NCBI GenBank assembly: GCA_963708025.1
Contig: CAVPSB010000013.1
Location: 32,001 to 96,000 of the forward strand
Direction: 5' to 3'
From: an uncultured Candidatus Rokubacteria bacterium
GTDB taxonomy: Bacteria > Methylomirabilota > Methylomirabilia > Rokubacteriales > DASRDR01
Length of the DNA stretch: 64,000 nucleotides
Part shown: positions 163 to 63,650 of the stretch, in pieces
How positions within the stretch are numbered: position 1 is the stretch's first letter
Layout of the letters: each line of letters opens with the position of its first letter
Position numbers and translations under genes: made by a program
The notes under the pieces: generated by a model
What the model was told of the DNA's origin: nothing
The model's database searches: none
Seen by the model: only the letters and a program-made list of their open reading frames with translations

Positions 163-1176
163 ATGATCCGGTACGTCCTGCGCCGGCTCTGTCTGGTTCC
201 GCTGGTCCTGCTCGGCGTGAGCGTGGTGACCTTCGCGGTGACGCGGATCATCCCCGGCGATCCCACCGACCGGCTCGTCGGCAGCGCGTTCCTGACCGAG
301 GAGCGGCGGGCCGAGATCCGCCGCGAGTACGGCCTCGACCGCCCCTACCCCGCCCAGTTCGCCGCCTATCTCCGGGGGCTTGTCCGCGGCGACCTTGGCA
401 CCTCGTTCCTCACCAGCCGCCCGGTCGCTGCCGACCTCCGCCAGCGCTTCCCGGCCACGCTCGAGCTGACCAGCGCCGCCATGTGCTTCGCGGTAGCCGT
501 CGCGGTCCCCCTCGGCGTCGGGTCGGCCGTCTGGAAGGGCTCGTGGCTCGACCACGCGGGCCGCGTCCTCGCCGTGCTCGGGGTCTCGATGCCCGTCTTC
601 TGGTCGGGCCTCCTCCTCCTCTATCTCTTCTTCTTCTTGTGGCAGTGGGCGCCGCCGCCCATCGGGCGGCTCGAGCTGTCCCTGCTGGCCCCCGCGCCGG
701 TGACCGGGCTCCTGACCGTGGACGCGCTCCTGGCCGGCGAGGGCGCGGTGCTCTGGGGCGCCCTGCGGAGCCTGGCCCTCCCGGCCCTCGCCCTCGGCCT
801 GGCGGCGATGGCCCCGCTCGCCCGGATGACCCGGGCGTCGACGCTGGAGGCGCTCGGCTCGGAGTACGTACGGGCGGCCCGGGCTTTTGGGCTCCCCGAG
901 TGCACGGTGGTCGTCCGCCACGCCCTCCGCACCGCGCTGCTGCCCGTGGTGACGATGGTCGCCGTCGTGTTCGGCTACCAGCTCGGCGGGGTCGTCCTCG
1001 TCGAGGCCGTCTTCGCCTGGCCGGGGCTCGGCCAGTACGCCTACAACGCGGTGGCCAACGCCGACCACCCCGCTGTCCAGGGCTTCATCCTCTACACCAC
1101 GACGATGTACGTCCTGCTCTTCCTGGTGGTGGACGTCCTGTACGCAGTGCTCGACCCGCGAGCCCGCGCAACGTGA
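163..1176 (+). CDS. Peptide/nickel ABC transporter permease (DppB/OppB family)
   Basis: MIRYVLRRL..IPGDP..YGLDRP..GDLGTS; EAA loop YVRAARAFG; VEAVFAWPGLG. Confidence 0.93.
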   Translation: MIRYVLRRLCLVPLVLLGVSVVTFAVTRIIPGDPTDRLVGSAFLTEERRAEIRREYGLDRPYPAQFAAYLRGLVRGDLGTSFLTSRPVAADLRQRFPATLELTSAAMCFAVAVAVPLGVGSAVWKGSWLDHAGRVLAVLGVSMPVFWSGLLLLYLFFFLWQWAPPPIGRLELSLLAPAPVTGLLTVDALLAGEGAVLWGALRSLALPALALGLAAMAPLARMTRASTLEALGSEYVRAARAFGLPECTVVVRHALRTALLPVVTMVAVVFGYQLGGVVLVEAVFAWPGLGQYAYNAVANADHPAVQGFILYTTTMYVLLFLVVDVLYAVLDPRARAT

Positions 1177-2079
1177 GCGCGGCACGGATCCGGTCCTTCC
1201 GGCCCCCCCCTCCCCCCGGTGGGTGGGGGAGGGGGGGTGGGGGGGGAGGGCGGGAGGTCCCCAACCAATGTCGAGCCGACGCGACGACCCTGGCCGGCCT
1301 CGCGATCACCCTCGCGCTCGTCCTGGTCGCCCTGCTGGCGCCCTGGCTCGCGCCCCACGACCCGTACGCGACCGATCCGGCGCGCGCGCTCCGCCCGCCG
1401 GCGCCGGCGCATCCTTTCGGCACCGGGGTCTTCGGCGAGGACATCCTCTCCCGCGTCCTCTGGGGGGCTCGCTTCGACCTCCTGATCGCCGCCGGTGCCG
1501 TCGGCATCGCCCTCGTCCTCGGTGGCGCCGTCGGGGCGGTGGCCGGCTTCACCGGCGGCTTCCCCGACGAGGGGCTCATGCGGGCGATGGACGTCCTGCA
1601 GGCCTTCCCGAACTTCGTCCTTGCCCTCGGGATCGCCGCCGCCCTCGGCCCGAGCCTCCCCAACCTGGTCCTCGCCATCGCGCTCACCAACGTGCCCATC
1701 TACGCCCGCCTGATGCGGAGCCAGGTGCTGACGCAGCGGACGGCGCCCTACGCGCTGGCGGCGGTCGGGGTGGGCGAACCCGGTGGCGCGGGTGTTGTTC
1801 GTCCACCTCCTGCCCAACACCTGGTCGCCGATCCTGGTCCAGGCGACGCTCCAGTCCGGGTGGGCGATTCTCCAGGCGGCCGGGCTGTCGTTCATCGGCC
1901 TCGGCGTGCGGGTGCCGACGCCGGAGTGGGGCGTGATGATCGGGATGGGCGTCCAGCAGGCGACCGCGGGCCAGTGGTGGGTGGCGTTCTTCCCGGGCCT
2001 CGCCATCATGGTGGCCGTCATCGGCCTGAACCTGCTGGGTGACGGACTCCAGGACTGGCTGGATCCGAAGCGCCGATGA
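1173..2079 (+). CDS. Peptide ABC transporter permease (DppC/OppC family); frameshift near 1780; repeat-derived N-terminus
   Basis: APWLAPHDP..HPFGT..GEDILSR in one frame, HLLPN..GLSFIGLG..PEWG..NLLGDGLQDWLDP in another; GTG overlaps the upstream TGA. Confidence 0.85.
1174..1265 (+). repeat. Repeat family A copy (degenerate), starting at the dppB TGA
   Basis: CCCCCCCCTCCCCCCGGTGGGTGGGGGAGGGGGG...GGGCGGGAGGTCCC matches the reverse complement of the 37844-38030 units. Confidence 0.85.
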
Positions 2080-3117
2080 ATCGCGCCCCCTCGTCTCAGC
2101 CCTCTCCCCCGGTGGGGGAGAAAGAGAGTCAGCCCCTCCTCTCCATCCAGGGCCTCCAGGTCGAGTTCGCGACGCCCCGCGGGGTGGCGCGCGTCCTCAC
2201 CGGCGTCGACCTGGAGGTGATCCGCGGCGAGGTGGTCGGGCTCGTCGGCGAATCGGGCTGCGGCAAGAGCGTGACGGCCCTCGCGGTTCTCCGCCTCCTG
2301 CGCCATCCCGGCCGCGTCACCGGCGGGAGCGTCCGCTTCCAGGGCCGGGAGCTCCTGGCGCTGCCGGAGGCGGAGATGCAGCGGGTCCGGGGCCGGGGAA
2401 TCGCGATGATCTTCCAGGCGCCCCGGGAGTCGCTGAACCCCGTCCTCACGGTCGGGCGGCAGCTCGGGCTCCTGCTCGCGCGGCACGACGGGATCGCCGG
2501 CCGAGCGGCGGCCGCGCGGGCCCGCGAGCTCGTCGAGATGGTCGAGCTGCCGGACCCCGCGCGGCGTGCTCCGAGCCTACCCACACGAGCTGTCGGGGGG
2601 GATGTGCCAGCGCGCGATGATCGCGCTCGCCCTCGCCTGCCGCCCCGCGCTCCTCATCGCCGACGAGGCGACCACGGCGCTCGACGTGACGGTCCAGCTC
2701 CAGATCCTCCTCCTGCTGCGGCGGCTGCGGGAGACCCTCGGCCTCGCCCAGCTCCTCATCACCCACAATCTCGGGGTGGTCGCCGAGGCGTGCCAGCGGG
2801 TGGCGGTCATGTACGCCGGCGAGATCGTCGAGACGGCGGCGGCCGGCGAGCTGTTCGCGGCCCCGCGACATCCCTACGCGCGCCGGCTCCTGGCGGCGCG
2901 GCCGCGCATCGGCGCGCCTCCGGAAGGCGATCCGATTCCCGGCAGCGTCCCGGACCCGATCGCCCGGCCCCCGGGCTGCCCGTTCCATCCGCGCTGTCAC
3001 CGCGCGCAGGCCTCCTGCGCCGAGCGCCACCCGGCGCTGGACGCGCTCGGGCCCGGGCGCGCGGTCCGGTGCCACTACCCGGAGCCGCCGGCGGACGGTG
3101 AGCCCGCGCTCCGGTGA
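2076..3117 (+). CDS. Peptide ABC transporter ATPase (DppD family); frameshift near 2575
   Basis: GESGCGKS Walker A; YPHELSGGMCQR, IADEATTALD, PPGCPFHPRC in the second frame. Confidence 0.9.
2100..2125. repeat. Palindromic repeat family C (CCCTCTCCCCC-N-GGGGGAGAGGG type) inside the dppD 5' end
   Basis: CCCTCTCCCCCGGTGGGGGAGAAAG; similar to 4128-4172 and 23033-23065. Confidence 0.55.
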
Positions 3118-4097: not shown

Positions 4098-4127
4098 ACG
4101 CGGTGCCTGTCACGACCCCGACCCCCT

Positions 4128-4172
4128 TCCCTCACCCCTACCCTCCCCCCCGGTGGGGGAGAGGGTAGGGGT
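4128..4172. repeat. Palindromic repeat family C between convergent genes (possible terminator role)
   Basis: ACCCCTACCCTC-CCCCCCGGTGGGGGA-GAGGGTAGGGGT inverted repeat. Confidence 0.65.
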
Positions 4173-4199
4173 GGCCGGGGCGATCTCGACTTCCCAGGG

Positions 4200-6198: not shown

Positions 6199-6327
6199 CT
6201 AGATCCTTCGGGGGGGTCTCGGAAGACCCCCCCGATGCCCCCCCGTCGTGGCGGCGGCGAAGCCGCCGCTCGGACGCTTTTCGTGGCTCACGTCGCACGG
6301 CACGCGACACAGCATGCTCCGACGAGC
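6199..6327 (+). repeat. Repeat family B, full copy
   Basis: CTAG..TTCGGGGGGGTCTCGGAAGACCCCCCCGATGCCCC..GCGGCGAAGCCGC..GACGAGC; aligns over ~125 bp with the reverse complement of 24739-24864. Confidence 0.85.
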
Positions 6328-7973: not shown

Positions 7974-8003
7974 GGATCTTCGAGGGGGTCTCGGAAGAGC
8001 CCC
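7970..8003 (+). repeat. Repeat family B, partial copy at a shared CTAG stop
   Basis: CTAGGGATCTTCGAGGGGGTCTCGGAAGAGCCC. Confidence 0.7.
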
Positions 8004-8476
8004 TGCGCCTCCTTCCCGGAGTTGACGTCAACCGGCGTCCCGGCCTCGTCTCGCGGAACCGGCGCGCCGCGGTGATCGAGCGGTGGATGGGAGGCTTCCA
8101 CTGCCGACCTGGAGAAGTCCGAGCGGTCCCTGACGGCCGCCAGGTACCGCAGGTCGGCCAGCCGGCGCTCCACGATGCGGGTCAGCTCCGCGCGACGGAC
8201 CGGGTCCGCGTCGTAGCAGCACCGCCAGCCGCGGAGGACTTCCGCCGCCTGGCCGAGCGACCGCCACTGGAGGACCAGCCACGGGCCGGTGAGCCCGGCG
8301 CCGCGGAGCCCGGTGATCACCGCGCGCGCGCACTGGCGCGTCTCTTCCAGCCACTTCGAGCGCTCCTCGACGAGCGGGACCATCGTCTGGCGCAGCAGCA
8401 GCGCGATCCGGCCCCGGCGGGACTGGAAGATCGCCACCAGGTCGGGGGGCACCTCCCCTCCGGGCCACCTCGTCAT
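7970..8476 (-). CDS. Hypothetical protein
   Basis: 168-aa ORF with GGAGGAG RBS; last residues are encoded by the family B repeat. Confidence 0.5.
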   Translation of the reverse strand: MTRWPGGEVPPDLVAIFQSRRGRIALLLRQTMVPLVEERSKWLEETRQCARAVITGLRGAGLTGPWLVLQWRSLGQAAEVLRGWRCCYDADPVRRAELTRIVERRLADLRYLAAVRDRSDFSRSAVEASHPPLDHRGAPVPRDEAGTPVDVNSGKEAQGLFRDPLEDP

Positions 8477-8491
8477 CGGCCGTCTCCTCCA

Positions 8492-8573
8492 TCGGGACCT
8501 CCCTCCTACCCCCCCAACCCCCCTCCCCCACCCACCGGGGGGAGGGGGGAGTCGGAGGACCCATTCGCTCTCA
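8492..8573 (-). repeat. Repeat family A copy, starting at the SPW-gene TGA
   Basis: TCGGGACCTCCC..CCCTCCCCCACCCACCGGGGGGAGGGGGGAGTCGGAGGACCCATTCGCTCTCA. Confidence 0.9.
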
Positions 8574-8857: not shown

Positions 8858-8993
8858 TCAGTTCGGGACCTCCCGCCCCCCCGATCCTTCGACGGCCTTC
8901 GGCCTTTGGCCCCCTCCCCCACCGTTCGACGGCCTTCGGCCTTTGGCGAGGGGGAGGGGGGAGTCGGAGGACCTATTGCTTCACACCCTCTCA
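8858..8993 (-). repeat. Repeat family A copy with 2 nested 20-mers, CTCAG at both ends, starting at the phosphoesterase TGA
   Basis: CTCAGTTCGGGACCTCCC...CACACCCTCTCAG. Confidence 0.92.
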
Positions 8994-9579
8994 GTCGAGG
9001 GCCAGGATCCGGGTCGCCAGGCGCCCCCGGTCGAGGCGCAGCAACCCGACGGTCCGGGGCAGCCGGAAGCGGCGCGGCCCGGCGCTGCCCGGGTTGAAGA
9101 GGAGGGTCGGACCGAGCCGCGCCCGGTAGGGCCGGTGGGAGTGGCCGAAGACGACGATGTCCGGCTGGAGGCGCTCGACCAGTCGCTCCTCCTTCCGGCC
9201 GATCTGGTGCAGCTCGCCGAAGATGTGACGCACGAGGACGCGCCGGCCACCGAGCTGCTCGACCCGCTCGACGGGAAAGCGGCGGAAGTGGTCGTTGTTG
9301 CCCTCGACCGCCAGGACCGGGGCGATCGACTCGAGGGCGGAGATCACTTCCAGCGCGCCGATGTCGCCGGCGTGGAGGATCGCGTTGAACACCCCGGAAG
9401 AGGCGCGGGATGGCGGGGTCGAACCGCCCGTGGGTATCGGAGATGACGCCGATCCTGATCGGGACCTCCCATCTACCCGACCCTTTGACGGCCTTCGGCC
9501 TTTGGCCCCCCTCCCCCATCGTTGGACGGCCTTCGGCCTTTGGCGGGGGGGGGGCCGGAGGGACCCGATTGCTCCACAT
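8991..9579 (-). CDS. YfcE/YfcE-like metallophosphoesterase; frameshift near 9385; start uncertain (within repeat)
   Basis: IGVISDTHG, ILHAGDIG, VEGNND, VFGHSH, FNPGSAG. Confidence 0.88.
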
Positions 9580-9586
9580 GCTCCCG
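9459..9586 (-). repeat. Repeat family A copy with 2 nested 20-mers
   Basis: TCGGGACCTCCC..GACGGCCTTCGGCCTTTGGC x2..GATTGCTCCACATGCTC. Confidence 0.88.
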
Positions 9587-9595: not shown

Positions 9596-11380
9596 CTACT
9601 CGCGCCCGCCCGGGCCCCGGTCGTAGGTCCACGTGACCGGGCCGCGCTCGGCCCGGCCGGCCTCGCGCCGGGCCTTGGTCGCGACGGCGTTGACCTCTCG
9701 CCCCGAGGCGTCCAGCACGACGCCGTAGTCCCGGAGGGCCGCCTCGACCGACACCTTGCCGTCCAGCACGTCGGCCAGCACGAGCGCCTCGTCGCGGTCG
9801 AGCGGGTCTCCGTGGCCGGCGCCGCCGGCGAGCCGGACGTGGAGCGTGTCGCCGGGCCGAAGCGTCAGCATCCGCTTGCCCGGCACCGTCTCCCGCATCC
9901 CGTCGGCGCGCTCGACCACCGCCTCGCCCCCCGCCGCCGGCAGGCCGCCGAAGAGGCCCCACGGCCGCGTGTAGAAGCGCTCGCCGCGGTGCGAGACCGT
10001 GAGGTCGGTCGAGACCGCGTGGAAGGCCTTCTCGAGCCCCAGGCCCCCGCGCCGGCGCCCGGCCCCGCCCGAGTCCCGGCGGGTCCGGCAGTAGGGGATC
10101 CGGATCGGAAAGTTCATCTCCAGCGCTTCGACCGGGATGTTCATGCAGTTGGTGACGTCGGTCTCGACGGCGTCGAGCCCGTCCTTCCGCGGCCGCGCCC
10201 CCATGCCCCCGGCGGCCAGCTCGGCCGCGACGAACGGCCGGCCGGTCTCGGGCCGCGTCCCCCCGATCGCCATGACGAGCAGCGTGCCCGAGCTCGCCGC
10301 CGGCACCTTCTCGGGCAGCGCCCGGACGAACGCGCCGAGCAGCGCGTCCGCGATGCGCTTGACGGTCGCCGTCCGGCCGCTCACCGGCGCCGGCGGGCGC
10401 GGGTTCACGAGACTGCCCTCGGGCAGCACGACCGAGATGGGGCGGAAGCAGCCCGCGTTGTTGGGGATCTCGGGATCGGTGATCGCGCGGATCACGTAGT
10501 ACACGGCCGAGAGCGTGGACGAGGGCACCGAGTTGAAGGGACCGCGCACCTGGGGGCTGGTGCCGGTGAAATCGAAGGTCAGCTCGGAGCCGCGGACGGT
10601 CACCGCCACCCGGATCTCGACCCGCCGGTCCAGGTCGATGCCGTCGTTGTCCATCTGGTCCGCGAAGCGATAGGTGCCGTCGGGGATCGCCGCGATCTGC
10701 CGGCGGGTCATGGTCTCGGCGCGCGCGAACAGCTCCTCGATCGCGGCCAGCACGGTCGCCACGCCGTGGCGGCCGAACAGCTCCCGCATCCGGGCCGCCC
10801 CCAGGCGCCCGGCGGCGATCTGGGCCATGAGGTCGCCGACGACCACGTCGGGGATGCGGACGTTGCGGCGGATGAAGGCGAGCACCGTCGGGTCGGGCTC
10901 GCCCTCGCGCAGCAGGCGGCACGGCGGGATGATGAGCCCTTCCTGGTAGATCTCGGTGGCGTCGGTCGGGATGCTGCCCGGGGTCTTCCCTCCCACGTCC
11001 TGGTGGTGGCACATCGTGGTGGCCAGCGCGACCGTCCGCCCCTCCCACCGGATGGGGACGACGACGACCCAGTCCGGCAGGTGCGTCCCGCCGTCGTAGG
11101 GGTCGTTGAGCAGGAAGGCGTCCCCCTCCCGCATGGACTCCGGCGGGAACGCCTCGATCATGCGCTTCACCGCGAAGATCAGCGAGCCGAGGTGGATCGG
11201 GATCCCGGTCCCCTGGGCGATCGTCTCGCCGCGCGCGTCGAAGAGCGCGGAGGAGGCGTCGAGCCCTTCCTTCACGATCGGGGAGTAGGCGCTCCTGAGG
11301 ATCGTGATCTCCATCTCGTCGGCGATGGCGTCGAACCGGTTCCGGAGCACTTCCAGGAGGATGGGATCGGCGAAGGCCAT
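9596..11380 (-). CDS. Hydantoinase B/oxoprolinase family protein
   Basis: DPILLEV, RSAYSPIVKE, NDPYDGGTHLPD, FDFTGT, DSGGAGRRRGG, GGAGHGDP. Confidence 0.92.
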   Translation of the reverse strand: MAFADPILLEVLRNRFDAIADEMEITILRSAYSPIVKEGLDASSALFDARGETIAQGTGIPIHLGSLIFAVKRMIEAFPPESMREGDAFLLNDPYDGGTHLPDWVVVVPIRWEGRTVALATTMCHHQDVGGKTPGSIPTDATEIYQEGLIIPPCRLLREGEPDPTVLAFIRRNVRIPDVVVGDLMAQIAAGRLGAARMRELFGRHGVATVLAAIEELFARAETMTRRQIAAIPDGTYRFADQMDNDGIDLDRRVEIRVAVTVRGSELTFDFTGTSPQVRGPFNSVPSSTLSAVYYVIRAITDPEIPNNAGCFRPISVVLPEGSLVNPRPPAPVSGRTATVKRIADALLGAFVRALPEKVPAASSGTLLVMAIGGTRPETGRPFVAAELAAGGMGARPRKDGLDAVETDVTNCMNIPVEALEMNFPIRIPYCRTRRDSGGAGRRRGGLGLEKAFHAVSTDLTVSHRGERFYTRPWGLFGGLPAAGGEAVVERADGMRETVPGKRMLTLRPGDTLHVRLAGGAGHGDPLDRDEALVLADVLDGKVSVEAALRDYGVVLDASGREVNAVATKARREAGRAERGPVTWTYDRGPGGRE

Positions 11381-11382
11381 GG

Positions 11383-11537
11383 TCAGTTTGGGACCTCCCG
11401 CCCACCCGATCCTTCGGACGGCCTTCGGCCTTTGGCGACGGCCTTCGGCCTTTGGCCCCCCTCCCCCACCGTTCGACGGCCTTCGGCCTTTGGCGGGGAG
11501 GGGGGAGCCGGAGGACTCGATTCCTTCCGTCCTCCCG
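11383..11537 (-). repeat. Repeat family A copy with 3 nested 20-mers at the hydantoinase A/B junction
   Basis: TCAGTTTGGGACCTCCCG..three GACGGCCTTCGGCCTTTGGC..GATTCCTTCC. Confidence 0.92.
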
Positions 11538-13570
11538 AGGAGCAGGTTCCCCGCCGGATCGGGCAGGGCCGTCCAGCCCGGCGGGACGATCGTCGTGGTG
11601 TCCGCCTGCTCGACGATGGCGGGGCCGGCGATCGCCACGCCGGCCGGCAGCCGGCCGCGCTCGTAGAGCGGGGTGTCGTGCCAGGCGCCGCCGAACCAGG
11701 CCCGGCGCGTCCCCTTCCACGCGGCCGCCGGCGAGCCTTCGGCCGGCGGCCGCTGGCCGAGGCGCGGACGCGGCAGCGGGTAGCGGTGGACGACCCGCAG
11801 GTTCACGATCTCGACGGGGTCCTCCGGCCGGTGATGGCGGTAGACGCGCTGGTGCGCTGCGTGGAAGGCCGCCACGATGGACGGGACCGACTCCGGTGTC
11901 ACTGCCGCCGGCAGCGGCACTTCCAGCTCGTAGGCCTGGCCGACGTACCGCATGTCGGCGGAGAAGCCCACCTCCACGGCTTCCGGTGGCACCCGCTCGT
12001 CGCGCATCTTCGCGCGCCCCTGTCCGTCCAGCTCGGCCAGGATCCGCCGGATGGCGTCGCAGTCGGCCGCGCGCAGATCCTGCACCGCGGTGCGCGCGTG
12101 GGCGTGCTCGATGGCGGCCACCAGGAGGCCGAAGGCGGAGAGGACGCCTGGCGCTTCCGGCACGACGAGGTGCTCGATGGCCAGCTCCTCGGCGAGCGCC
12201 ACGCCGTGGACCGGTCCGGCTCCACCCAGGAGGACCAGGGCGAACTCGCGGGGGTCGTGGCCGCGCTCGATCGTGACCAGCCGGATCTGATCGGCCATCC
12301 GCGCGTTGATCACCCGGTGGATGCCGGCGGCAGCCGCCACCGGACGGAGCCCGAGGGGCGCCGCGACGGCGGCCACCGCGTCGTGGGCCAGCCGCGGGTC
12401 GAGCCTCAGGCTCCCCCCCGCGAAGTAGTCGGGGTCCAGGTAGCCGAGGACGACGCTGGCGTCGGTCACCGTCGCCCGGCTGCCGCCCTGCCCGTAGCAG
12501 GCGGGCCCCGGCTCGGCCCCGGCGCTCTGCGGTCCGACCCGCAGGCCGCCGGCCGCGTCGATCCAGGCCAGGCTGCCCCCGCCGGCCCCGATGGTGTTGA
12601 CGTCGACCATGGGCACCCGGACCGGGTACCCGGCGATGGCGCCACTCTGGCTGATGAGCGGGACCCCGCCCTGGACCAGCGCGACGTCGGAGCTGGTGCC
12701 GCCGATGTCGATCGAGATGATGTCGCGGTGACCCGACGCCGCCGCCGCGAAGAGAGCCCCGACCACGCCGGCCGCCGGCCCGGAAAAGACGAGCGACACC
12801 GGGCGGGCCGCCGCCAGGCGGGCCCCCGTGATGCCGCCGCGCGAGTGCATGATCTGGGCGCCGACGGCGATCCCCAGGCCCTTCAGCGCCCCATCGAGGC
12901 CGCCCAGGTAACGGGCGCAGATCGGCCGCAAGTAGGCGTCGAACGCGGTGACGCAGGACCGCTCGTACTCGCGGAACGTCGGATCGACCTCGCTCGACAG
13001 CGAGACCGCCAGATCGGGGTGCCGCCGGGCGATCAGCTCCCGGGTCCGCTCTTCGTGGGCGGGGCTGAGAAAGGCGAAGAGATAGCAGACCGCGATGGCC
13101 TCGATGCCCTCCGCCGCCCGCAGGCCCTCCACCGCCCGCAGCACGCCGGCCTCGTCCAGCGGCACGAGCACGCGGCCGGCGGCGTCCACCCGCTCCCGGA
13201 CGCCGACCCGGCGCCGCCGGGGGGCGAGGAAGATCGGGGTGTCGGCATCCATGTCGAGGTCGTACATGCGGGAGCGGCGCTGCCGGCCCAGCTCGAGAAC
13301 GTCCTCGAAGCCCTCGGTGGTGAGGACGGCGGTGATCGCGCCTTTCCGCTCGACGACCGCGTTCGTCGCCACCGTGGTCCCGTGGATGAAGCGGGTGACC
13401 TCGGCGGGGCGCGCCCCGGTCAACTGGAGGATCCGCGCCACCGCGTGCCGGATGCCGACCAGCAGGTCCTTGGGCGTGGACGGCACCTTGGTGAAGGCCA
13501 GCCGCTCGCGGTCGACGATGCCGACGATGTCGGTGAAGGTACCGCCGATGTCGACCCCGATCTCGATCAG
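11383..13570 (-). CDS. Hydantoinase A/oxoprolinase family protein; start and stop both lie inside repeat copies
   Basis: IGVDIGGTFTD, HGTTVATNA, SGPAAG, DIGGTSSD, IGAGGGS, GPQSAGAEPGPACYG, MRYVGQ. Confidence 0.9.
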
Positions 13571-13686
13571 TTCGGGACCTCCCGCCTACCCGATCCTTCG
13601 ACGGCCTTCGGCCTTTGGCCCCCCTCCCCCACCCACTGGGGGGAGGGGGGAGCCGGAGAGACGCATTCTCAGTTCACACGCTCTCG
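13567..13686 (-). repeat. Repeat family A copy with 1 nested 20-mer
   Basis: TCAGTTCGGGACCTCCCG..CACACGCTCTCG. Confidence 0.92.
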
Positions 13687-16844: not shown

Positions 16845-16912
16845 TCTCTTCGGGGGGGTCTCGGGAAGACCCCCCGATGCCCCCCCTCGGTTGCGCCGGC
16901 AAGCCGGCGCTC
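16841..16912 (+). repeat. Repeat family B, 5' half, directly after TAA
   Basis: CTAATCTCTTCGGGGGGGTCTCGGGAAGACCCCCCGATGCCCCCCCTCGGTTGCG. Confidence 0.8.
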
Positions 16913-18119: not shown

Positions 18120-18229
18120 GGACATCGAAGGGGATTCGGAAGGCCCCCGCATCGAGGGGAACTCGGAAGGCCCCGGCGAGGTCCCGCCGGGCTCTTCGCG
18201 GGCTCTGAGCGGGCGGCGGCGATCGGCGG

Positions 18230-24738: not shown

Positions 24739-24864
24739 GCTCGTCGAGGTATCTCGTGTCGCGTGCAGTGCGGACTGAGCCACGAACAGCGTCCGAGCGG
24801 CGGCTTCGCCGCCGCAACCGAGGAGGGGCATCGGGGGCTCTTCCGAGACCCCCCGAAGTTCTAG
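24739..24864 (-). repeat. Repeat family B, full copy, directly after TAG
   Basis: Reverse complement CTAGAACTTCGGGGGGTCTCGGAAGAGCCCCCGATGCCCC..GCGGCGAAGCCGCCGCTCGGACGC..GACGAGC. Confidence 0.85.
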
Positions 24865-37843: not shown

Positions 37844-38030
37844 TCAGTTCGGGACCTCCCGCCCACCCCCCCAGCCCCCCTCCCCCACCCACCGGGGGGA
37901 GGGGGGAGTCGGAGAACCCCATTCCTTCACACGCTCTCAGTTCGGGACCTCCCGCCCACCCCCCAACCCCCCTCCCCCACCCACCGGGGGGAGGGGGGAG
38001 CCGGAGCGTCCATTCCTTCACGCGCTCTCA
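37844..38030 (-). repeat. Repeat family A, tandem dimer (93 + 91 bp) starting at the treZ TGA
   Basis: Unit boundaries TCA at 37844, 37937 and 38028; best-preserved copies. Confidence 0.95.
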
Positions 38031-46200: not shown

Positions 46201-47218
46201 CTACTGGAGCTGGAACGGCTGCATGAACTGCGCGGCGAGATCCAGCGCGACGAACGCCGGCGCCAGCAGGAGCGGCTCGTTGCTGGGATCCCAGACGAAG
46301 CACTCTCCCGCCCAGGCGACGGAGCGGGCCTGGACGGAACTCGGGAGTCCGGCCGGATCCTCGACCCAGACCCGCCCGCCGTTGTCCACCGCGGCGGCAC
46401 GGAACGCCGTCATGGACGGCAGGACGAAGGCGGTACCCGTCTGGCTGCTACAGTTGTCGCCGTCAAAGTACACGGCACCTCCGACCAGCGCGCCGAATTC
46501 GAGTCTCAAGCCAAAGACCGCCCCTTGGCTCTTGAAGCCGACGAGCGGGAACCCAGCGTCGAATGTCACGACGGGCCCGACGACGAGCGGAGTAGTACTG
46601 GAGTCCACAACTTCGACGAATGCCGAGCCCCCGGTGCCCGGGTCACCCTTCGGACCTTGCAGACCCTGCAGCCCTTGCAGACCCTGCAGCCCTTGCAGAC
46701 CCTGCAGCCCTTGCAGACCCTGGGCGCCCTGTGGGCCAGCGGGACCAGCGGGACCAGCCGGGCCGACGGCACCAGCCGGACCGGTCGCGCCTTGCGGACC
46801 AGCCGGGCCCATGGCACCGGCCGGACCGGCCGGACCGGTCAAGCCAGCCGGACCAGCGGGACCAGCCGGCCCGGTCGCGCCCTTGGCACCGGCCGGACCG
46901 GCGACGCCGGCGGGACCAGCCGGGCCCACGGCCCCGGCGGCACCAGTCGCGCCCTTGGGACCGGCCGGAGCCGGCCGGGCCGGTAAGCCCCTGCGCGCCG
47001 ACCGGACCTCTCGGTCCCATCCGATTCCACTCCAGACGCCCCTCGTGTCGCGAGCACCGCTCGCGCGGCCCCACGACGCGCACGTGGCCGTTGGAGTACT
47101 GCACGCACGCGTGAATCACGTCCGAGGACCCGCCGCTGTTGGCCACGGCGACAGCCCCAGCGGCGGCGAGCACAAGCAGGATGACGACGGGACCTCCGCG
47201 ACGGGCCAGCTTGAGCAT
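46201..47218 (-). CDS. Secreted collagen-like protein; frameshift near 46970
   Basis: Signal peptide, IHACV..C..LEWN domain, about 40 Gly-X-Y triplets, globular C-terminus. Confidence 0.85.
46655..46720. repeat. 18-bp tandem repeat encoding (GLQ)7
   Basis: CCTTGCAGACCCTGCAGC x3 plus a partial unit. Confidence 0.9.
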
Positions 47219-47731: not shown

Positions 47732-49116
47732 GTCGAGAGCTGCCAGCGATGCCCGGCCGGTCGATGGTCGAAGAACCGCTTCGCCTTCAGCTCGTAGCGC
47801 GGCAGGCTCCCCGACCGCAGCACCTCGACGGCGATCGTCACGCCGATCGTCGCCTTGAGCAACCCCTCCGCCTGGCCGCGGAGCCCCGCGTATCCGGTCT
47901 CCGGCACGTCGGCCCCGGCCTCGACCTTGACGAGGACCACGTCGTTCGACCCTTCCCGGCTCACGTGCAGCTCGTGGTGCTCCGACAGGCCCGCTACACG
48001 GTGGAGGAGGGCCTCGACTGCCGTCGGATACACGTTCACGCCCTTGGCGATGATCATGTGGTCGGTGCGGCCGAGGACGCCGCCCGGATAGCCGAGCCAG
48101 GTGGTGCCGCAGCCGCACCGGGCGTGGGTCCACCGCACCAGGTCGTGGGTGCGGTACTTGATGAGCGGCTGCCCGTGCTGGATGTAGGAGGTGACGAGGT
48201 GCTCGCCGACCTCGCCGTCGCGCACCCGCCGCCCCGTTTCGTCCACCACGAGCGCGTGGTACCAGTCCTCGCAGAGGTGGACCCGGTCGCCGAGCCGGCA
48301 GCCCGGGTTGGTCGGGCCCAGCTCGGCGATCCCGTACAGCTCGTACACCCGCGCGTCCCACAGCTCCGCGATGGCGTCGCGCGTCGTCGGGATCGAGCCG
48401 CCCGGCTCCCCCGACACGATGACGACGGACACCGACGTCTTCCGGAGGTCCACGTTCATCTCGCGCGCCACCTCGCCGAGGTACAGCGCGTACGTCGGCG
48501 TCGCCACCACGACGTCCGGGCGGTAGGCCAGGATCTGCTGGATCCGCGCCCGCGAGTCGAGACCCCCGCCCGACACCACGGTGCCGCCGAGCCGGCGCAC
48601 GCCCATGTAGGCGCTCCAGAACGCGGCGAAGATCCCCCAGTGGAACGGGAAGTAGAAGGTGTGCCGGGGACGGAGGCCGACGGTCCAGTAGAGGTAGACC
48701 CAGGACTCGCCCCACAGGAGCGAGGAGTGGTAGGTCAGCGGGATGTGGAGCGGCGCGCCGGTCGAGCCCGACGTCTGGAACCGATGGAGGAAGAAATCCT
48801 CCGGCACCGCCAGCGCCTCGCCGAACGGCGGGCTGACCGCCTGAGCGTCGAGGATCTCCTTCTTGTCGATCACCGGCAGCCGCTGCTCGAAGTCGTCCAT
48901 CGAGCGGATCTGCGCGGGCTTCACGCGGGCCCGGTCCAGGAGGCGCCGGTACATCGGGCTCCGCTGGTAGGCGTAGTTGACGAGCGCGCGGAGCTTGGCC
49001 AGGTGGAGCCGGTCCAGCTCGGCCCGGGGAAGGGTCTGTGTCCAGGGGTTCCAGAAGCGCGCCCGCAGGGTGCGGGGCTTGAAGAGCCGGGGGGACGGGG
49101 GCGTCGGAGCACCCAT
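47728..49116 (-). CDS. Phenylacetate-CoA ligase family protein
   Basis: QTSGSTG, ATPTYALYL, SGEPGG, YGIAE, PLIKYRTHD, GRTDHM..KGVNVYP; ATG lies within a family A half-copy. Confidence 0.9.
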   Translation of the reverse strand: MGAPTPPSPRLFKPRTLRARFWNPWTQTLPRAELDRLHLAKLRALVNYAYQRSPMYRRLLDRARVKPAQIRSMDDFEQRLPVIDKKEILDAQAVSPPFGEALAVPEDFFLHRFQTSGSTGAPLHIPLTYHSSLLWGESWVYLYWTVGLRPRHTFYFPFHWGIFAAFWSAYMGVRRLGGTVVSGGGLDSRARIQQILAYRPDVVVATPTYALYLGEVAREMNVDLRKTSVSVVIVSGEPGGSIPTTRDAIAELWDARVYELYGIAELGPTNPGCRLGDRVHLCEDWYHALVVDETGRRVRDGEVGEHLVTSYIQHGQPLIKYRTHDLVRWTHARCGCGTTWLGYPGGVLGRTDHMIIAKGVNVYPTAVEALLHRVAGLSEHHELHVSREGSNDVVLVKVEAGADVPETGYAGLRGQAEGLLKATIGVTIAVEVLRSGSLPRYELKAKRFFDHRPAGHRWQLST

Positions 49117-49133
49117 TCCGTCGCGCGCGCTCA
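49087..49133 (-). repeat. Repeat family A, 5' half, starting at the VIT1-gene TGA
   Basis: Sense TGAGCGCGCGCGACGGAATGGGTGCTCCGACGCCCCCGTCCCCCCGG versus TGAGAGCGTGTGAAGGAATGGGGTTCTCCGACTCCCCCCTCCCCCCGG. Confidence 0.78.
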
Positions 49134-59418: not shown

Positions 59419-59435
59419 CGCTCGCCGGTCACCGG

Positions 59436-59623: not shown

Positions 59624-60631
59624 GTGCGCTTCAGTGTTCGGGTCAACAACGACTTGACGCTCGCCGAGCACGTCGCGCTGGCGCGGACGGCCGAGGCGGC
59701 CGGGTTCGATCAGTTCTGGGTGAGCGACGACCTCTTCTTCCGGAGCGCGCCGGTCATCGTCTCCGCCATCGTCACCGCGACCCAACGGATCGAGGTCGGC
59801 ACCGGCATCCTCAACCCGTACACGATCCATCCCGCCGAGCTGGCGATGCTGGCCGCCACCCTCGACGAGCTGAGCGGCGGTCGCTTCAACCTCGGCCTCG
59901 CCGCCGGCGCTCCCAGCTTCCTGGCCTGGGTGGGCCTGGCCCAGGAGCGCCCGCTGGCGGCCGTGCGCGAGACGATCGAGGCGGTGCGCGGGCTCCTGGC
60001 CGGCGAGCGGGTGCCCCGGCAGGGCCGGTTCCTGCGCTGGACCGGCGACGCCTACCTGCGGTTCCAGGCGCCGCGGCGCACGCCGATCTACGTCGGCGCG
60101 ATGAGCCCGAACATGCTGCGCCTGGCCGGTGAGGCGGGGGACGGCGCGCTGCCGCTCCTGATGCCGCCCGAGCACTACTTCGGCGTGCGGCCGTACCTGG
60201 AGGCGGGAGCGCAGCGCCGGGACCCCGGACTGGGACCGCTCGATCTGGCCGCCTGTGTGTGGGTCTCCCTCGACGAGGACCCCGCCGCGGCGCGGCGGGC
60301 CCTGGCCGAGAAGGTCGCCTACTACGGCCACGCGCTGGGCCCGCTCATCCTGGAGCGCCTCGGGCTGACCGCGGAGGACTTCGCCCCGGTGACGCGGGCC
60401 ATGATCCACGAGCGGGACGTGGACCGGGCGTGCCGCCTCGTGGACGAGCGCATGCTCCGGATCGGCGTCGTGGGCGGGCCGGCGGAGGTCATCGCCCGCC
60501 TGGAGCCCCTGGTGGAGGCCGGGGTCCGGCACCTCTCCTTCGGTCCCCCGCTGGGGCCGGATCCGCGGCGCGCGGTGGAGCTGCTGGGACGGACCGTGCT
60601 GCCTCACTTCCGGTCCCGGACGCGCGATTGA
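59624..60631 (+). CDS. LLM-class flavin/F420-dependent oxidoreductase
   Basis: AEAAGFD.FW, GTGILNP..HP, LDELSGGRF.LG, PIYVGAMSP.ML.LAG..GDG. Confidence 0.9.
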   Translation: MRFSVRVNNDLTLAEHVALARTAEAAGFDQFWVSDDLFFRSAPVIVSAIVTATQRIEVGTGILNPYTIHPAELAMLAATLDELSGGRFNLGLAAGAPSFLAWVGLAQERPLAAVRETIEAVRGLLAGERVPRQGRFLRWTGDAYLRFQAPRRTPIYVGAMSPNMLRLAGEAGDGALPLLMPPEHYFGVRPYLEAGAQRRDPGLGPLDLAACVWVSLDEDPAAARRALAEKVAYYGHALGPLILERLGLTAEDFAPVTRAMIHERDVDRACRLVDERMLRIGVVGGPAEVIARLEPLVEAGVRHLSFGPPLGPDPRRAVELLGRTVLPHFRSRTRD

Positions 60632-60681
60632 GAGCGCGGGAAGGAAGGGGGGCGCCGGGCGGTGGGCCGGAGGTCCCGAAC
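60629..60681 (+). repeat. Repeat family A, internally deleted copy from the LLM TGA to the livG GTG
   Basis: TGAGAGCGCGGGAAGGAAGGGG...GGTGGGCCGGAGGTCCCGAAC|GTG; both ends retained. Confidence 0.8.
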
Positions 60682-61442
60682 GTGCTCGAGGTCCGCAACC
60701 TGGCCAAGTCCTTCGGCAGCCTCGCCGCGCTCGACGACGTCACGTTCGGCGTCGGCGCCCGCACCATCACCGGGCTGATCGGGCCCAACGGCGCCGGCAA
60801 GACCACGCTGTTCGACACGGTGGCCGGGATGCAGCGCGCCGATCGCGGCGAGATCCGCCTCCGGGGCGAGCGCATCGACGGCGAGCGCCCGGACCGGATC
60901 TTCCGGCGCGGGCTGGCCCGCACCTTTCAGATCCCGCGCCCGTTCGGCGGCATGACGGTGCTGGAGAACGTGATGCTGGCGCCGGGCGGCCAGGCCGGCG
61001 AGCGCTTCTGGAACAGCTGGATCCGGTATCAGCCGGGTGGCCCGCGAGGAGCACGCCATCCGCCGGCGCGCGCTGGAGCTGCTGCGGTTCTGCGAGCTGG
61101 ACGGTCAGGCCGGCGCGCTGGCGCGGACGCTCTCGGGGGGCCAGCAGAAGCTCCTGGAGCTGGCCCGCGTCCTCATGGCGGACGCCGAGCCTGATCCTGC
61201 TCGACGAGCCGGCGGCCGGGGTGAACCCGGCGCTGATGGGGACCCTGGTCGAGAAGATCCGCGAGCTCCACCGGAGCGGGATCACGTTCCTGGTCATCGA
61301 GCACAACATGGACCTGGTGATGTCGATCTGCCACCCGATCGTCGTGATGGCCCGCGGGCGGATCATCTATCAGGGCGACGCCGCCGGCGCCCGCGCCGAT
61401 CCCCAGGTGCTCGACGCGTACCTGGGCGACGTCCCGGGGTGA
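60682..61442 (+). CDS. Branched-chain ABC ATPase (LivG family); frameshifts near 61030 and 61190
   Basis: GPNGAGKTT, ARTFQ, LSGGQQKLLE, LLDEPAAGVNP, IEHNM, AYLG across three frames. Confidence 0.85.
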
Positions 61443-61449
61443 CGGGCCC

Positions 61450-62163
61450 GTGCTCGAAGCCGAGAGCCTCGTCGCCGGCTACGTGCCCGGCCTGCCGATC
61501 CTGCACGGCGTCTCCCTCCGGGTGGCGGCCGGCGAGATCGTCTGCGTCATCGGGCCGAACGGCGCCGGCAAGTCGACGCTGGTCAAGGCCATCGCGGGCC
61601 TGATCCCCGTCGAGGCCGGCTCGGTGCGCCTCGGCGACCGGGACATCACCGGCGTGGCCACCCACGAGCTGGCGGGCGCCGGCGTCGGCTATGTCCCCCA
61701 GACGGCCAACGTCTTCACCACGCTCACCGTCCACGAGAACCTGCTCGTGGCCGGGCACCGGCTGGGACCCGACCGCGCGGGACGGATCGAGCGCGTGTAC
61801 GGGCTCTTCCCCGACCTGGCCGCCCGCCGCCGGGACCGCGGCCGGGTGCTGTCCGGCGGACAGCGCCAGCTCCTCGCGCTCGCGCGCGCCCTGGTGATCG
61901 AGCCGGTGGCGATGATGCTCGACGAGGCGACGGCCGGGCTGGCCCCGCGCGCGGCGGCCGACGTGTTCGCCCGCATGCGGGAGCTGGCCGGCCAGGGCGT
62001 GGCGATCCTGATGGTGGAGCAGAACGCCCGGGCCGCCCTCTCCGTCTCCGATCGGGGCTACGTCCTCACCGAGGGCCGGAACCGGCTGAGCGGGGCGGCG
62101 CGCGACCTACTGGCCGATCCCGCGATCGGCGAGATCTACCTGGGCGGCGGGCGCAGTCGATGA
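61450..62163 (+). CDS. Branched-chain ABC ATPase (LivF family)
   Basis: GPNGAGKST, LSGGQRQ, LDEATAGLAP, VEQNA. Confidence 0.92.
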   Translation: MLEAESLVAGYVPGLPILHGVSLRVAAGEIVCVIGPNGAGKSTLVKAIAGLIPVEAGSVRLGDRDITGVATHELAGAGVGYVPQTANVFTTLTVHENLLVAGHRLGPDRAGRIERVYGLFPDLAARRRDRGRVLSGGQRQLLALARALVIEPVAMMLDEATAGLAPRAAADVFARMRELAGQGVAILMVEQNARAALSVSDRGYVLTEGRNRLSGAARDLLADPAIGEIYLGGGRSR

Positions 62164-63056
62164 TCGGGCAGCTGGTGGCCGACGGCCTCTCCGCCGGCGC
62201 GATCCTCGCGCTGGCGGCGGTCGGGCTCAGCCTCGGCATGCAGATCCTCCGCTTCGCCAACTTTGCCCACGCGGAGTTCGCGACCTGGGGGGCGTACCTG
62301 GCGCTCACCTTCGTGTGGCTCGGCGCCGGCGCCGCCCCCATCGCGCCCTTCTCGTTCGGCTGGCCGCTGCTGGTCGCCATGGTCCTGGCCGGCGCCGGCA
62401 CCGCCGCCCTGGCGCTCCTCACCGACCGCCTGATGTTCCGCCCGCTGCGCGCCCGGGGCGCGGCGCCGGTCACGCTGATCTTCGCCTCGTTCGGCGTCGC
62501 GCTGGTGCTCCGCAACCTGCTGCTCCTGGCGTGGGGGCCGCACGCGCACTACTACAGCCGGGAGCTGCCGATGGCGGTGGAGGTCCTGCCCGGCGTGCGG
62601 CTCCTGCCCGACCAGGTCCTCGTCCTCGGGCTCGCCGTCCTGCTGGTCCTCGCTCTCCACGGATTTCTCCGGTACACGCGGCTCGGGCTGGCCATGCGGG
62701 CCACCGCCGAGAGCCCGACGCTCGCCCGCGTGAGCGGGATCGAGGTGGAGGGCGTCATCCGCTGGACCTTCGGCCTGGCCGGCGCCCTCGCCGCCATGGG
62801 CGGCGTCTTCTTCGGCGTGACGGTCCAGATCCGACCCGAGATGGGCTTCTCCCTGCTGCTGCCGATCTTCGCGGCGGCGATCCTCGGCGGCATGGAGAGC
62901 CTGGTGGGGGCGGTGGTCGGCGGCCTGGTGGTCGGGCTCGCCGAGAGCCTCTCCCTCCTCGTCGTCCCGCCCGGCTACAAGCCCGCCGTGCCGTTCGTGC
63001 TCCTGATCGTGATCCTGTTCTTCAAACCGACGGGTCTGTTCGGCCGCGCGCGCTGA
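62160..63056 (+). CDS. Branched-chain ABC permease (LivH family)
   Basis: FANFAHA, TRLGLAMRA, FAAAILGG, KPTGLFG. Confidence 0.92.
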   Translation: MIGQLVADGLSAGAILALAAVGLSLGMQILRFANFAHAEFATWGAYLALTFVWLGAGAAPIAPFSFGWPLLVAMVLAGAGTAALALLTDRLMFRPLRARGAAPVTLIFASFGVALVLRNLLLLAWGPHAHYYSRELPMAVEVLPGVRLLPDQVLVLGLAVLLVLALHGFLRYTRLGLAMRATAESPTLARVSGIEVEGVIRWTFGLAGALAAMGGVFFGVTVQIRPEMGFSLLLPIFAAAILGGMESLVGAVVGGLVVGLAESLSLLVVPPGYKPAVPFVLLIVILFFKPTGLFGRAR

Positions 63057-63086
63057 CGGGCCCGCCACCTGGAAAGGACGACCTCC

Positions 63087-63575
63087 ATGGCGAGAACGCT
63101 CATCTCCACCGGCACCCGGTTCGAGACGCTGGCCAGCTACTCCCGGGCCGTCGTCAACGGCGACATGATCTACATGGCAGGGAGCGTGGGGTACGACTAC
63201 GCGACGGGACGGATCCCCCCGGACGCCGTCGAGCAGACGGAGCAGATCTTCCGCAACGTCGTGGCGGTCCTTCGCGAGGTCCGGGCCACGCTGGCCGACG
63301 TCCTTCGCCTCCGGGTTTTCCTGGCCGACCGCGCCGACCTGATCCCGGTGTGCGAGGTCATCGGGCGGCACTTCCGGGACATCCGGCCGGCCAACACCAC
63401 GGTCGTCACCTCGCTCGCCACCGAGGAGATGAAGGTGGAGATCGAGTTCACCGCCCGCCGGGGCTCGGCCCGGATCGCGCGGTCCCGGGCCCTGGGCGAC
63501 ACCGCGCGGGCCAGACGGCCCGCCGGCGGAGGCCGGCCCGGACCCCGGCGTTCGGGACCGCGGCGCGGGAAATAG
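63087..63575 (+). CDS. RidA/YjgF family protein with basic C-terminal tail
   Basis: FETLASYSRAV, MAGS, FRDIRPANT, VEIE. Confidence 0.88.
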   Translation: MARTLISTGTRFETLASYSRAVVNGDMIYMAGSVGYDYATGRIPPDAVEQTEQIFRNVVAVLREVRATLADVLRLRVFLADRADLIPVCEVIGRHFRDIRPANTTVVTSLATEEMKVEIEFTARRGSARIARSRALGDTARARRPAGGGRPGPRRSGPRRGK

Positions 63576-63650
63576 GGGATGGTTCCGGCTCCCCCCTCCC
63601 CCCAGTGGGTGGGGGAGGGGGGCTGGGGGGGTGGGCGGGAGGTCCCGAAC
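63560..63650 (+). repeat. Repeat family A copy ending directly at the livM ATG
   Basis: CCGGCTCCCCCCTCCCCCCAGTGGGTGGGGGAGGGGGG..GGGCGGGAGGTCCCGAAC|ATG. Confidence 0.9.

Follow-up and report, generated by a model that had tools for sequence, protein, structure and literature searches.

A sense-oriented dispersed repeat that probably enters bacterial operons at TGA triplets

How does a repeated piece of DNA come to lie between genes in such a way that its first three bases are the stop codon of the gene before it? The question is raised by a stretch of 64,000 nucleotides from the genome of an uncultured Candidatus Rokubacteria bacterium (GenBank assembly GCA_963708025.1, contig CAVPSB010000013.1, positions 32,001 to 96,000), referred to here as the window (G000:C13:32001-96000, where G000 is our label for the source genome). 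A preliminary description, made from the letters of the window alone, had listed 11 copies of an intercistronic element, family A, and had proposed that it targets, or is only tolerated at, TGA stop codons in a fixed orientation. We have followed this element through the whole of G000, an assembly of 8.17 Mb in 49 contigs with ~71% G+C and a completeness of 99.67%, and into its relatives. The reading that we consider probable is that family A is a non-coding, non-autonomous dispersed repeat that enters at TGA and is built to keep the translation of the genes flanking it.

Family A is a real repeat, far beyond chance. Its 32-nt hairpin core occurs six times in the window (with up to three mismatches) and not once in 100 shuffles, and its 18-nt head occurs four times against an expectation of 0.04. 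A first profile, built from five of the window copies and applied to the genome with a cut-off of E<1e-3, gave 413 matches, comprising 259 that reach both ends of the model, 128 that hold the 3' part only, 21 that hold the 5' part only, and five that reach neither end. The iterated profile finds 460 places in the genome, amounting to 45,348 bp in total, and the copies are scattered across many contigs, in housekeeping operons. Nine of the 11 copies claimed for the window are among them (at 1174, 8491, 8862, 9458, 11387, 13571, 37847, 37941, and 63567); the other two, at 49089-49133 and 60629-60681, are partial and were recognized by eye only.

The basic unit is 93 nt long and non-coding. It opens with a head of consensus TGAGAGCGTGTGAAGGAAT-N-GGGTCCTCCGRCT, in which a second TGA sits 10 nt after the first, passes into a 12-bp hairpin (CCCCCCTCCCCCC / RGTGGGT / GGGGGAGGGGGG), and ends with the tail YTGGGGGGGTGGGCGGGAGGTCCCGAAC, after which TGAG usually appears again. 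Unit lengths cluster at 90-93, ~113, and ~135 nt because one or two copies of a 22-nt module, CCAAAGGCCGAAGGCCGTCSAA, can take the place of the loop or the G-run; in a further variant, the loop accommodates a structured insert of ~66 nt. The module carries a GGCC/GGCC mini-hairpin, with a UUCG loop when the opposite strand is read, and lies in the window at 8890-8957, 9487-9554, 11437-11504, and 13600-13625. The genome holds 267 such modules, with a family A tail within 110 nt of 107 of the 231 arrays, and the module recurs within a third repeat family (GACGCAGGGAGTCGCCGACCGCAGGCGTACTCC...), which makes family A a mosaic.

Folding predicts the 12-bp hairpin, with z scores of +0.27 to -1.22 relative to shuffled sequence, a comparison that is uninformative for sequence made of C-runs and G-runs. 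Pairing of CCUCC in the head with GGAGG in the tail appeared in two of four sense-strand folds and was dropped, as the heads of related elements are without CCUCC. The absence of long terminal inverted repeats, already remarked upon in the preliminary description, is borne out: the consensus ends (GAGAGCG... and ...CCCGAAC), compared by eye, are not inverted copies of each other, and a repeat search showed the central hairpin only. Counts that depend on sequence anchors refer to 164 copies with both anchors; the remaining 249 of the 413 were missing one. Unit lengths in these 164 copies are distributed 62/54/48 modulo three, and in the absence of a bias toward multiples of three, an internal relay open reading frame and read-through of the TGA were both rejected, with the proviso that homopolymer errors could blur such a bias.

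The relationship of the copies to their neighbors was assessed against genes called with a codon-usage caller of our own, which is crude and gave 7226 genes on 80% of G000; the coding tests, also our own, are likewise approximate. The 413 matches fall into 286 with both neighbors in the same sense as the copy, 60 in convergent gaps, 31 with both neighbors opposite, 17 in divergent gaps, and 19 inside a called gene. In co-directional gaps, sense copies therefore outnumber antisense copies by 286 to 31 (binomial p 8e-53), and this cannot stem from a replication-strand rule, because gene pairs on the two strands are about equal in number (2841 ++ and 2697 --). Divergent gaps are depleted, holding 17 of the 394 flank-classified copies as against 818 of the 7177 gene pairs. 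The common sense orientation of all 11 window copies with their upstream genes is thus representative of the genome and far from random, but a single fixed orientation is too strict a formulation. An antisense subfamily, TCA-GAGCG...GGGAGGGAGGTCCCGAAGATC-TCA, with diagnostic changes of its own, accounts for 17 of the 31 copies whose neighbors are both opposite. The 3' TCA of these copies serves a gene on the opposite strand, 3-6 nt away, as its stop codon, and the subfamily has the same target word on the other strand.

Coincidence with stop codons was judged by a test that is independent of the gene list (an upstream frame open for at least 60 codons with a coding score of at least 12), which 881 of 1000 called gene ends pass. 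The 5' end of the model is reached by 299 matches, 234 with a recognizable head and 65 without. Of the 234, 103 have a gene stop in their first TGA and 10 in their second, a further 13 follow another unit in tandem, and 31 have a gene stop within 60 nt upstream. A control of 5000 TGA triplets, sampled on either strand outside gene interiors, contained 536 gene stops (10.7%), so that the 103 of 234 for family A represents a marked enrichment (p 1e-38). The proposed link to TGA stops in fixed orientation hence survives as an enrichment, whereas exclusivity does not, as only about half of the copies touch a stop.

What, then, is the site? The 164 anchored copies include 115 that begin with TGA, 83 followed by TGA at the 3' end, and 64 with both. 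In the set found by the iterated profile, TGA stands on both flanks of 16 of the 20 young copies (those at least 93% identical to the family A consensus) and of 49 of the 153 older ones, as a target duplication would give; a likeness to target duplication had been noted at two window copies. The 12 commonest 3'-flank triplets of the anchored copies include 83 TGA, 3 TAA, and no TAG. As TAG is a common gene stop (2047 of the 7203 called genes), this points to TGA itself as the site, not to stop codons in general. Where the 5' TGA ends a gene, it is preceded by C in 62 of 86 copies compared with 2235 of 4792 for all TGA stops, which suggests that the target originally given as TGA is better stated as a preferred CTGA, the word also made by the AAC|TGA end of the unit. 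Units in tandem run in the same direction and have a single TGA between them, which would follow if the target is regenerated at each end. We infer that insertion duplicates the TGA and that the unit does not bring one of its own; the two routes have the same sequence outcome.

The 3' junction, which is an addition to what was first described, offers a second signal to the neighboring genes. The last 14 nt of the unit consist of GGGAGG and a further 7-8 nt to the unit end, and GGGAGG is a Shine-Dalgarno box, because the 16S rRNA of G000 ends ...CACCUCCUUUCU, the CCUCC of which is complementary to it. The last base of the unit and the TG of the 3' TGA together make an NTG codon. Among 353 tailed copies, 79 (60 + 19) lying between two genes of their own sense have an open downstream frame with an in-frame ATG, GTG, or TTG at -4 to +8 nt of the end; in the window, this is exemplified by GAAC|ATG at 63651 and GAAC|GTG at 60682. 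Where a 3' TGA is followed by a gene on the same strand (89 copies), a long coding frame is in the phase of the NTG in 43, in the other possible phase in 16, and missing in 30. Overall, an NTG-phase gene follows 53 of 120 TGA-ended copies. For copies ending AAC|TGA the figure is 29 of 82, to be set against a chance rate for this test of 359 of 2235 ordinary CTGA stops, or 16% (p 2.6e-5), from which perhaps twenty of the 29 cases are real. Ends that read AAA, AAT, or AA with the C lost, and that consequently make ATG or TTG, are followed by an NTG-phase gene in 24 of 38 cases, significantly more than the 29 of 82 (Fisher p 0.006), as expected if CTG were a poor start that is repaired by selection. 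The Shine-Dalgarno box of the tail would then serve ribosomes, and CTG would serve as a start.

Homology at the N terminus of the downstream proteins confirms, for three of them, that the coding sequence would begin at a junction CTG. The window hydantoinase gene, read from 13570, begins CTG ATC GAG ATC GGG, and its orthologue in the relative G001 (85% identical) begins ATG ATC GAG ATC GGG. Seven more orthologues begin ATG or GTG CAG ATC GGC at the same residue, the motif being present in eight of the nine loci examined, and if translation is taken from CTG, the Pfam domain Hydant_A_N begins at residue 4. For an MR/MLE-family gene elsewhere on contig C13, at C13:361234, residues 1-359 of the solved structure 3tj4_A align to residues 1-353 of the product read from CTG, and for a quinone oxidoreductase gene on the same contig, at C13:387521, residue 6 of 1qor_A (Escherichia coli QOR) aligns to residue 5. 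Both of these genes have an in-frame TAG five codons upstream of the CTG and their next canonical start 14 codons downstream.

Sites without the element are found in relatives between dppB and dppC, a junction that is filled in G000. A JGI metagenome contig (L123), the DppB of which is 91.4% identical to that of G000, is empty and reads ACATGAGG, with an ATGA overlap of the two genes. Three further loci are empty with TGATG, namely L131, L145, and L121 (82.4, 81.1, and 80.7% DppB identity, respectively), and one at 85.4% identity (L122) is filled, its contig stopping inside the hairpin. Filled and empty states do not track protein similarity, which argues for repeated gain or precise loss. One contig of X1 (~84% alike) joins window position 1167 to 1275 by 14 other letters. 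Locus L029, tried as an empty site from the same genus, was rejected: it is 94% alike over its best segment but only 62.6% over DppB, and belongs to G020. G000 is the sole member of its genus among the genomes compared, short-read contigs of relatives mostly end at family A elements, and no insertion polymorphism of a young copy was obtained from them.

A BLAST search with one unit found the hairpin-to-tail part in 12 of 41 related genomes, including G000; 11 of the 12 belong to the same family, and the twelfth (family f2) has one marginal match (E 6.6e-4). Matches number 21 in G001 and nine in G002. A search of 201 genomes of the phylum with a strict core pattern gave 140 occurrences in G000, a single one in G004, and none in the rest. 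The counts in relatives are minima, because fragmented assemblies under-report repeats. Inspection of 40 loci in relatives revealed lineage-specific families with other heads built to the same plan: a TGA(G) start, a C/G hairpin with a T-A pair in register, a G-rich run resembling a Shine-Dalgarno box, and NTGA. What the genera have in common as a conserved core is the 12-bp C/G hairpin. In 24 such copies, the end is ATGA in 18, GTGA in three, CTGA in two, and TTGA in one, and in 18 of the 24, the frame set by the NTG stays open, with a positive coding score, as far as the retrieved sequence extends. A candidate gene-stop TGA lies 29-68 nt before the hairpin in 12 of 23 copies, and A or G precedes it in 11 of these 12. 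Together with the ATGA ends, this indicates that a complete ATGA overlap is re-formed by the unit in other genera. The abundance in G000 represents a burst from a master that ended in C. At one locus each in G020 (L253) and G008 (L250), the likeness between the first bases of the unit and the sequence that follows it extends beyond the TGA, through the words TGACCCTC and CCCGATGA, respectively, hinting at a longer duplication, or a longer common core, in those lineages.

These observations can be brought together in a simple scheme. The unit would enter at a TGA triplet, preferably CTGA, in an orientation fixed relative to that triplet, and its insertion would leave TGA on both sides. Copies would persist mainly where the target TGA is a stop codon, because the layout of the unit lets translation on both sides survive. 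With its first three bases it would give the upstream gene back its stop, and the second TGA, 10 nt further along, would close another reading frame. Given GGGAGG and its spacer of 7-8 nt, a downstream gene that overlapped or abutted the stop would be restarted at the junction NTG, or at an ATG or GTG a few bases further on. The hairpin is the putative handle for a mobilizing enzyme, and may possibly also act as a barrier at the 3' end of mRNA.

Several points weigh against this scheme, or at least against its simplest form. A total of 77 of the 234 headed copies are near no stop codon, and 81 of the 164 anchored copies are without a 3' TGA. The share of copies at gene stops rises with age, from 16 of 48 in the highest scoring class through 45 of 106 to 42 of 80 in the lowest, so selection, and not targeting alone, shapes the pattern. 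At former ATGA or GTGA overlaps, an A or G is predicted before the 5' TGA, but of the 18 copies with a gene stop at the 5' end and a downstream gene in NTG phase, only five show it; several of the 18 have a true ATG with its own Shine-Dalgarno box further downstream, and many look to be in frame by chance. With neither an enzyme, a long copy, nor terminal inverted repeats at hand, the case for mobility is made by copy number, empty sites, and TGA flanks. Finally, the quality of the data has to be considered. The gene calls come from a crude caller that places genes on only 80% of the genome. The assembly is probably a long-read one, because it resolves hundreds of repeats, and homopolymer lengths in it may therefore be unreliable, which would affect the C-runs and G-runs of the unit as well as reading frames that depend on a single base (dppC at 1270 and a hyuA-hyuB fusion, both discussed below).

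A selfish origin is not the only way to account for such a pattern. Family A might instead be an intercistronic RNA module that serves the host, kept and spread by selection for the tuning of operons, in which the hairpin would shield the upstream cistron from 3' exonucleases and the Shine-Dalgarno box would set the output of the downstream one. The 286:31 sense bias fits such a role, as do the depletion of copies in divergent gaps, where promoters lie, the conservation of layout between genera while the head sequence changes, and the higher share at stops among older copies; a second repeat of this genome, family B, is also placed just after stops of any kind in 114 of its 153 copies. What a host module leaves unexplained is how ~460 near-identical units reached unrelated operons, why 16 of the 20 young copies have TGA on both flanks, why tandem units have one TGA in common, and why the filled and empty states at dppB|dppC do not follow protein similarity. 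Neither would it be expected to create poor CTG starts that are apparently repaired later, and its folding energies, in the z range given above, are no better than those of shuffled sequence. We therefore hold it to be an unlikely account of the family as a whole; it concerns the persistence of copies and is compatible with their mobility. Returning to a mobile repeat that enters at TGA, the question becomes what moves it. The claim that the element is non-autonomous is upheld, in that no long family A copy in G000 encloses a gene and 5'-only matches pair with 3' parts 44-66 nt away. No match was found in collections of viral contigs and plasmids. A RVT_1 reverse transcriptase is absent from G000, as is a small GIY-YIG gene, the only GIY-YIG match lying in a 641-aa open frame that is presumably uvrC. 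IS110 was rejected both as mobilizer and as user of the repeat as a target: there are 10 such genes, with a family A copy within 6 kb at only two of the 10 loci, none adjacent, and without family A ends.

Two enzymes nevertheless merit discussion. A Y1 HUH transposase (RAYT or TnpA), moving single-stranded DNA and inserting it 3' of a short word as in REP/REPIN or IS200/IS605 systems, would suit a strong G+C hairpin without terminal inverted repeats, a short specific target, and strand-specific insertion, and if the element had its own terminal TGA, insertion 3' of the target word would give the same outcome as is seen here. Against it stand the absence of any match to PF01797 in a genome that is 99.67% complete, when six of 14 control genomes do match, and of any TnpB match (PF07282), the direct rather than inverted arrangement of tandem units, the presence of a single central hairpin instead of the subterminal hairpins at both ends of IS200/IS605 elements, and an orientation that follows the local gene by 286:31, far above any replication-strand rule. 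Such a transposase is, in our view, extremely improbable as the mobilizer. Only slightly less remote is a multi-copy DUF222-HNH nuclease that would act in trans, cutting at or near (N)TGA sites beside the hairpin, the unit then being copied in by repair. In a self-comparison of G000, the commonest multi-copy coding repeat is a DUF222+HNH element of ~1.56 kb (C13:513884-515451, C2:141254-142812, C15:235156-236717, C28:4390-5950, C19:85448-86987, C37:51330-52915, and others; open frame of 491 aa in L258). This is an unusual gene family for the phylum: PF02720 matches number 16 in G000, 7 in G001, 9 in G002, 2 in G006, 3 in G005, and none in G003 or the 15 g5 genomes, and among 14 controls only Corynebacterium has any. 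These counts roughly track the abundance of family A-like repeats, for which most BLAST matches are in G000, G001, and G002, and mycobacteria carry both mycobacterial interspersed repetitive units (MIRUs) and the DUF222-HNH "13E12" repeats. However, the genomes concerned are related, so that co-occurrence may reflect one clade; G005 has the gene and no family A BLAST match, whereas G003 and several g5 genomes have matches and no gene. The two elements have no ends in common, the six DUF222 copies examined each lie 1.2-13 kb from the closest family A copy, and we know of no biochemistry that ties a DUF222-HNH protein to transposition. DUF222-HNH is thus a lead only, and we judge the explanation very unlikely. 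The self-comparison also contains a repeat of ~1.1 kb (L260) with up to eight partners (C49:195597-196699, C24:67238-68338, C14:23204-24321, C22:226973-228171), the 397-aa open reading frame of which matches no Pfam family.

As had been supposed, the element belongs to no named Rfam family: the window has no match at gathering scores, and at E≤1 only miRNA and snoRNA hairpin models respond, with 17-24 bits against cut-offs of 55-105. A literature search at the level of abstracts found no such element described in Rokubacteria or Methylomirabilota, and no TGA-anchored repeat. The closest described analogues are the MIRUs, reportedly the subject of Supply et al. in 1997. Like them, family A lies between co-directional genes in the sense direction (286 copies as against 31 with both neighbors opposite), overlaps the upstream stop (103 of 234) and the downstream start (53 of 120 in NTG phase), has empty and filled sites, and has yielded no mobilizing enzyme. 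As described in the literature (PMC12548453, PMC3184786), MIRUs are elements of 40-100 bp, present in dozens of copies inside polycistronic operons, with G+C-rich internal inverted repeats and ends that overlap the stop and start codons of their neighbors; empty and filled sites and tetranucleotide direct repeats suggest transposition by an enzyme that is not known, and they are thought to insert in such a way that the downstream gene stays translated. They differ from family A in having a small relay open reading frame coupled at -4 nt, where family A has no length constraint and a Shine-Dalgarno box instead. Family A is also some ten times more numerous, belongs to another phylum, has no sequence likeness to MIRUs, and, in the main G000 subfamily, leaves CTG in place of ATG.

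Other small repeats are more distant. The REP, BIME, and REPIN sequences (PMC2817692, PMC12306157) are short G+C-rich extragenic hairpins in hundreds of copies, often near an upstream stop, and resemble family A as mosaics of interchangeable modules with proposed roles in mRNA stability and translation. G000 has no RAYT gene, however, and family A units are direct and sense-oriented, not alternating or in inverted pairs, and possess TGA flank repeats, a built-in Shine-Dalgarno box, and a stop codon. Neisseria REP2 and the inverted-repeat sequences of Borrelia are found directly upstream of genes, to which they provide a ribosome-binding site and start codon; they also carry a promoter, act as 5' leaders, are not anchored on an upstream stop, and show no TGA duplication (PMC3184786). 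An integron attC site is a poor match on sequence, as the ends of family A do not fit the R''/R' cores (RYYYAAC ... GTTRRRY), and the copies are scattered in housekeeping operons instead of forming a cassette array next to intI, for which no search was made. Bacterial MITEs (miniature transposable elements with inverted repeats), such as Correia/NEMIS, ERIC, and RUP, are small, non-autonomous, and co-transcribed with their neighbors, and make a short target duplication, usually of TA or TNA. They have terminal inverted repeats and a cognate insertion sequence, and insert in either orientation. The short target-site duplication has its counterpart in family A (16 of 20 young copies, and 64 of 164 overall, are flanked by TGA at either end), but family A is without terminal inverted repeats, is strongly oriented, and has no cognate autonomous insertion sequence, neither the 10 IS110-type genes nor the six DUF222 copies examined having family A ends.

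A bolder proposal, which we put forward as a speculation with little probability of being correct in full, is that family A, together with the sister families of other Rokubacteria genera, constitutes a new class of mobile DNA. Such elements would recombine at an (N)TGA core matched to their own junction (CTGA in G000, ATGA in G001), home to stops and stop/start overlaps, and regenerate both signals, driven by an enzyme not yet recognized as a transposase, for which DUF222-HNH is the only lead. If this were true, the same logic might explain the movement of mycobacterial MIRUs, a matter open since 1997, for which family A in any case provides a second and far more abundant system in which to seek the mobilization mechanism. 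More generally, family A would illustrate how a selfish repeat can colonize the most constrained of non-coding sites, the stop/start junctions of operons, by carrying in a stop codon and a ribosome-binding site together with the larger part of a start codon. There are practical consequences for annotation: gene callers will overlook the starts of dozens of genes in G000, which would lie at a junction NTG that is often CTG, and at least one gene pair appears fused through a translated copy. The breaks of short-read assemblies of these soil bacteria at element sites are also explained by the family.

The window copies display the range of forms that the unit can take. At all six loci named in the preliminary description, the head TGA is a called gene end (last base at 1176, 8571, 8991, 38028, 49131, or 60631), and the names of the genes involved, as of LigB, have Pfam support (BPD_transp_1, SPW, Metallophos_2, Alpha-amylase, VIT1, Bac_luciferase, LigB). 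The copy at 1174..1265 (+) has its TGA at 1174-1176 as the stop of a dppB-like permease gene (BPD_transp_1) and the tail GGGAGGTCCCCAAC at 1252-1265, with an ATG at 1270. That at 8491..8573 (-) supplies the stop of an SPW-domain gene (TGA 8573-8571). At 8861..8993 (-), two 22-nt CCAAAGGCCGAAGGCCGTCGAA modules are present, the TGA at 8993-8991 is the stop of a Metallophos_2 gene, and TGAG follows the 3' end. The recurrence of TGAG had been pointed out here and at the tandem pair near 37844, and both the recurrence and the pair are present. The first unit of the pair, 37940..38030 (-), has its TGA (38030-38028) as the stop of an alpha-amylase-family, treZ-like gene; the second, 37847..37939 (-), is the copy nearest to the consensus, with hairpin arms within 37875-37906 and a TGA after it at 37846-37844.

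Shortened copies are seen at 49089..49133 (-), which has the head and the C arm only and supplies the VIT1 stop (TGA 49133-49131), and at 60629..60681 (+), where 53 nt of head and tail without a hairpin give the stop of a luciferase-like monooxygenase gene (Bac_luciferase; TGA 60629-60631), with GTG directly following at 60682; both were missed by the two profiles. Less regular are the copies at which the stop has been lost or lies elsewhere. The module-rich copy at 9457..9585 (-) has its head ~10 nt past the TAG stop of the hydantoinase gene and is not TGA-anchored. At 63559..63650 (+), the head is decayed, the upstream L-PSP gene stops at a TAG inside it, and the tail GGGAGGTCCCGAAC is followed by ATG at 63651. 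In the copy at 13570..13686 (-), the head reads CGA and the LigB gene continues to the next TGA (RERVN*), as originally reported, and the last base of the unit, C at 13570, forms with the following TG the CTG at the first residue of the hydantoinase.

The copy at 11386..11536 (-) has three modules and has lost both head TGAs. As assembled, it is translated as an in-frame linker of ~49 aa within a single 1324-aa frame (window 9599-13570, minus strand) that joins the Hydantoinase_A and Hydantoinase_B halves, the latter beginning at residue 735. This frame is either a gene fusion produced by exonization of the repeat or an indel error.

A similar ambiguity is found at dppC, where the ATG at 1270 that follows the first copy is one base out of frame with the gene (window 1268-1275). 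Relatives start MRTAD or MRHPD, and G000 in frame reads ..NQCRAD..; a single-base indel in the assembly is probable here, the alternative being a real frameshift.

Family B, introduced above, has the core CTTCGGGGGGGTCTCGGAAGACCCCC and 153 copies in the genome at up to four mismatches. Its sites in the window are 6206-6258, 7978-8019, 16848-16900, 18123-18202, and 24808-24853 (reverse). A sense gene stop (TAG, TGA, or TAA) lies no more than 12 nt upstream of 114 of the 153 copies, compared with three in a control taken at the other end on the opposite strand, and family B is thus a stop-proximal hairpin that does not depend on TGA. The window also contains, at 46645-47011, an array of 9-nt periodic repeats (ACCCTGCAG / CCCTTGCAG) in at least 15 overlapping copies, which probably belongs to a coding region whose product has a three-residue repeat.

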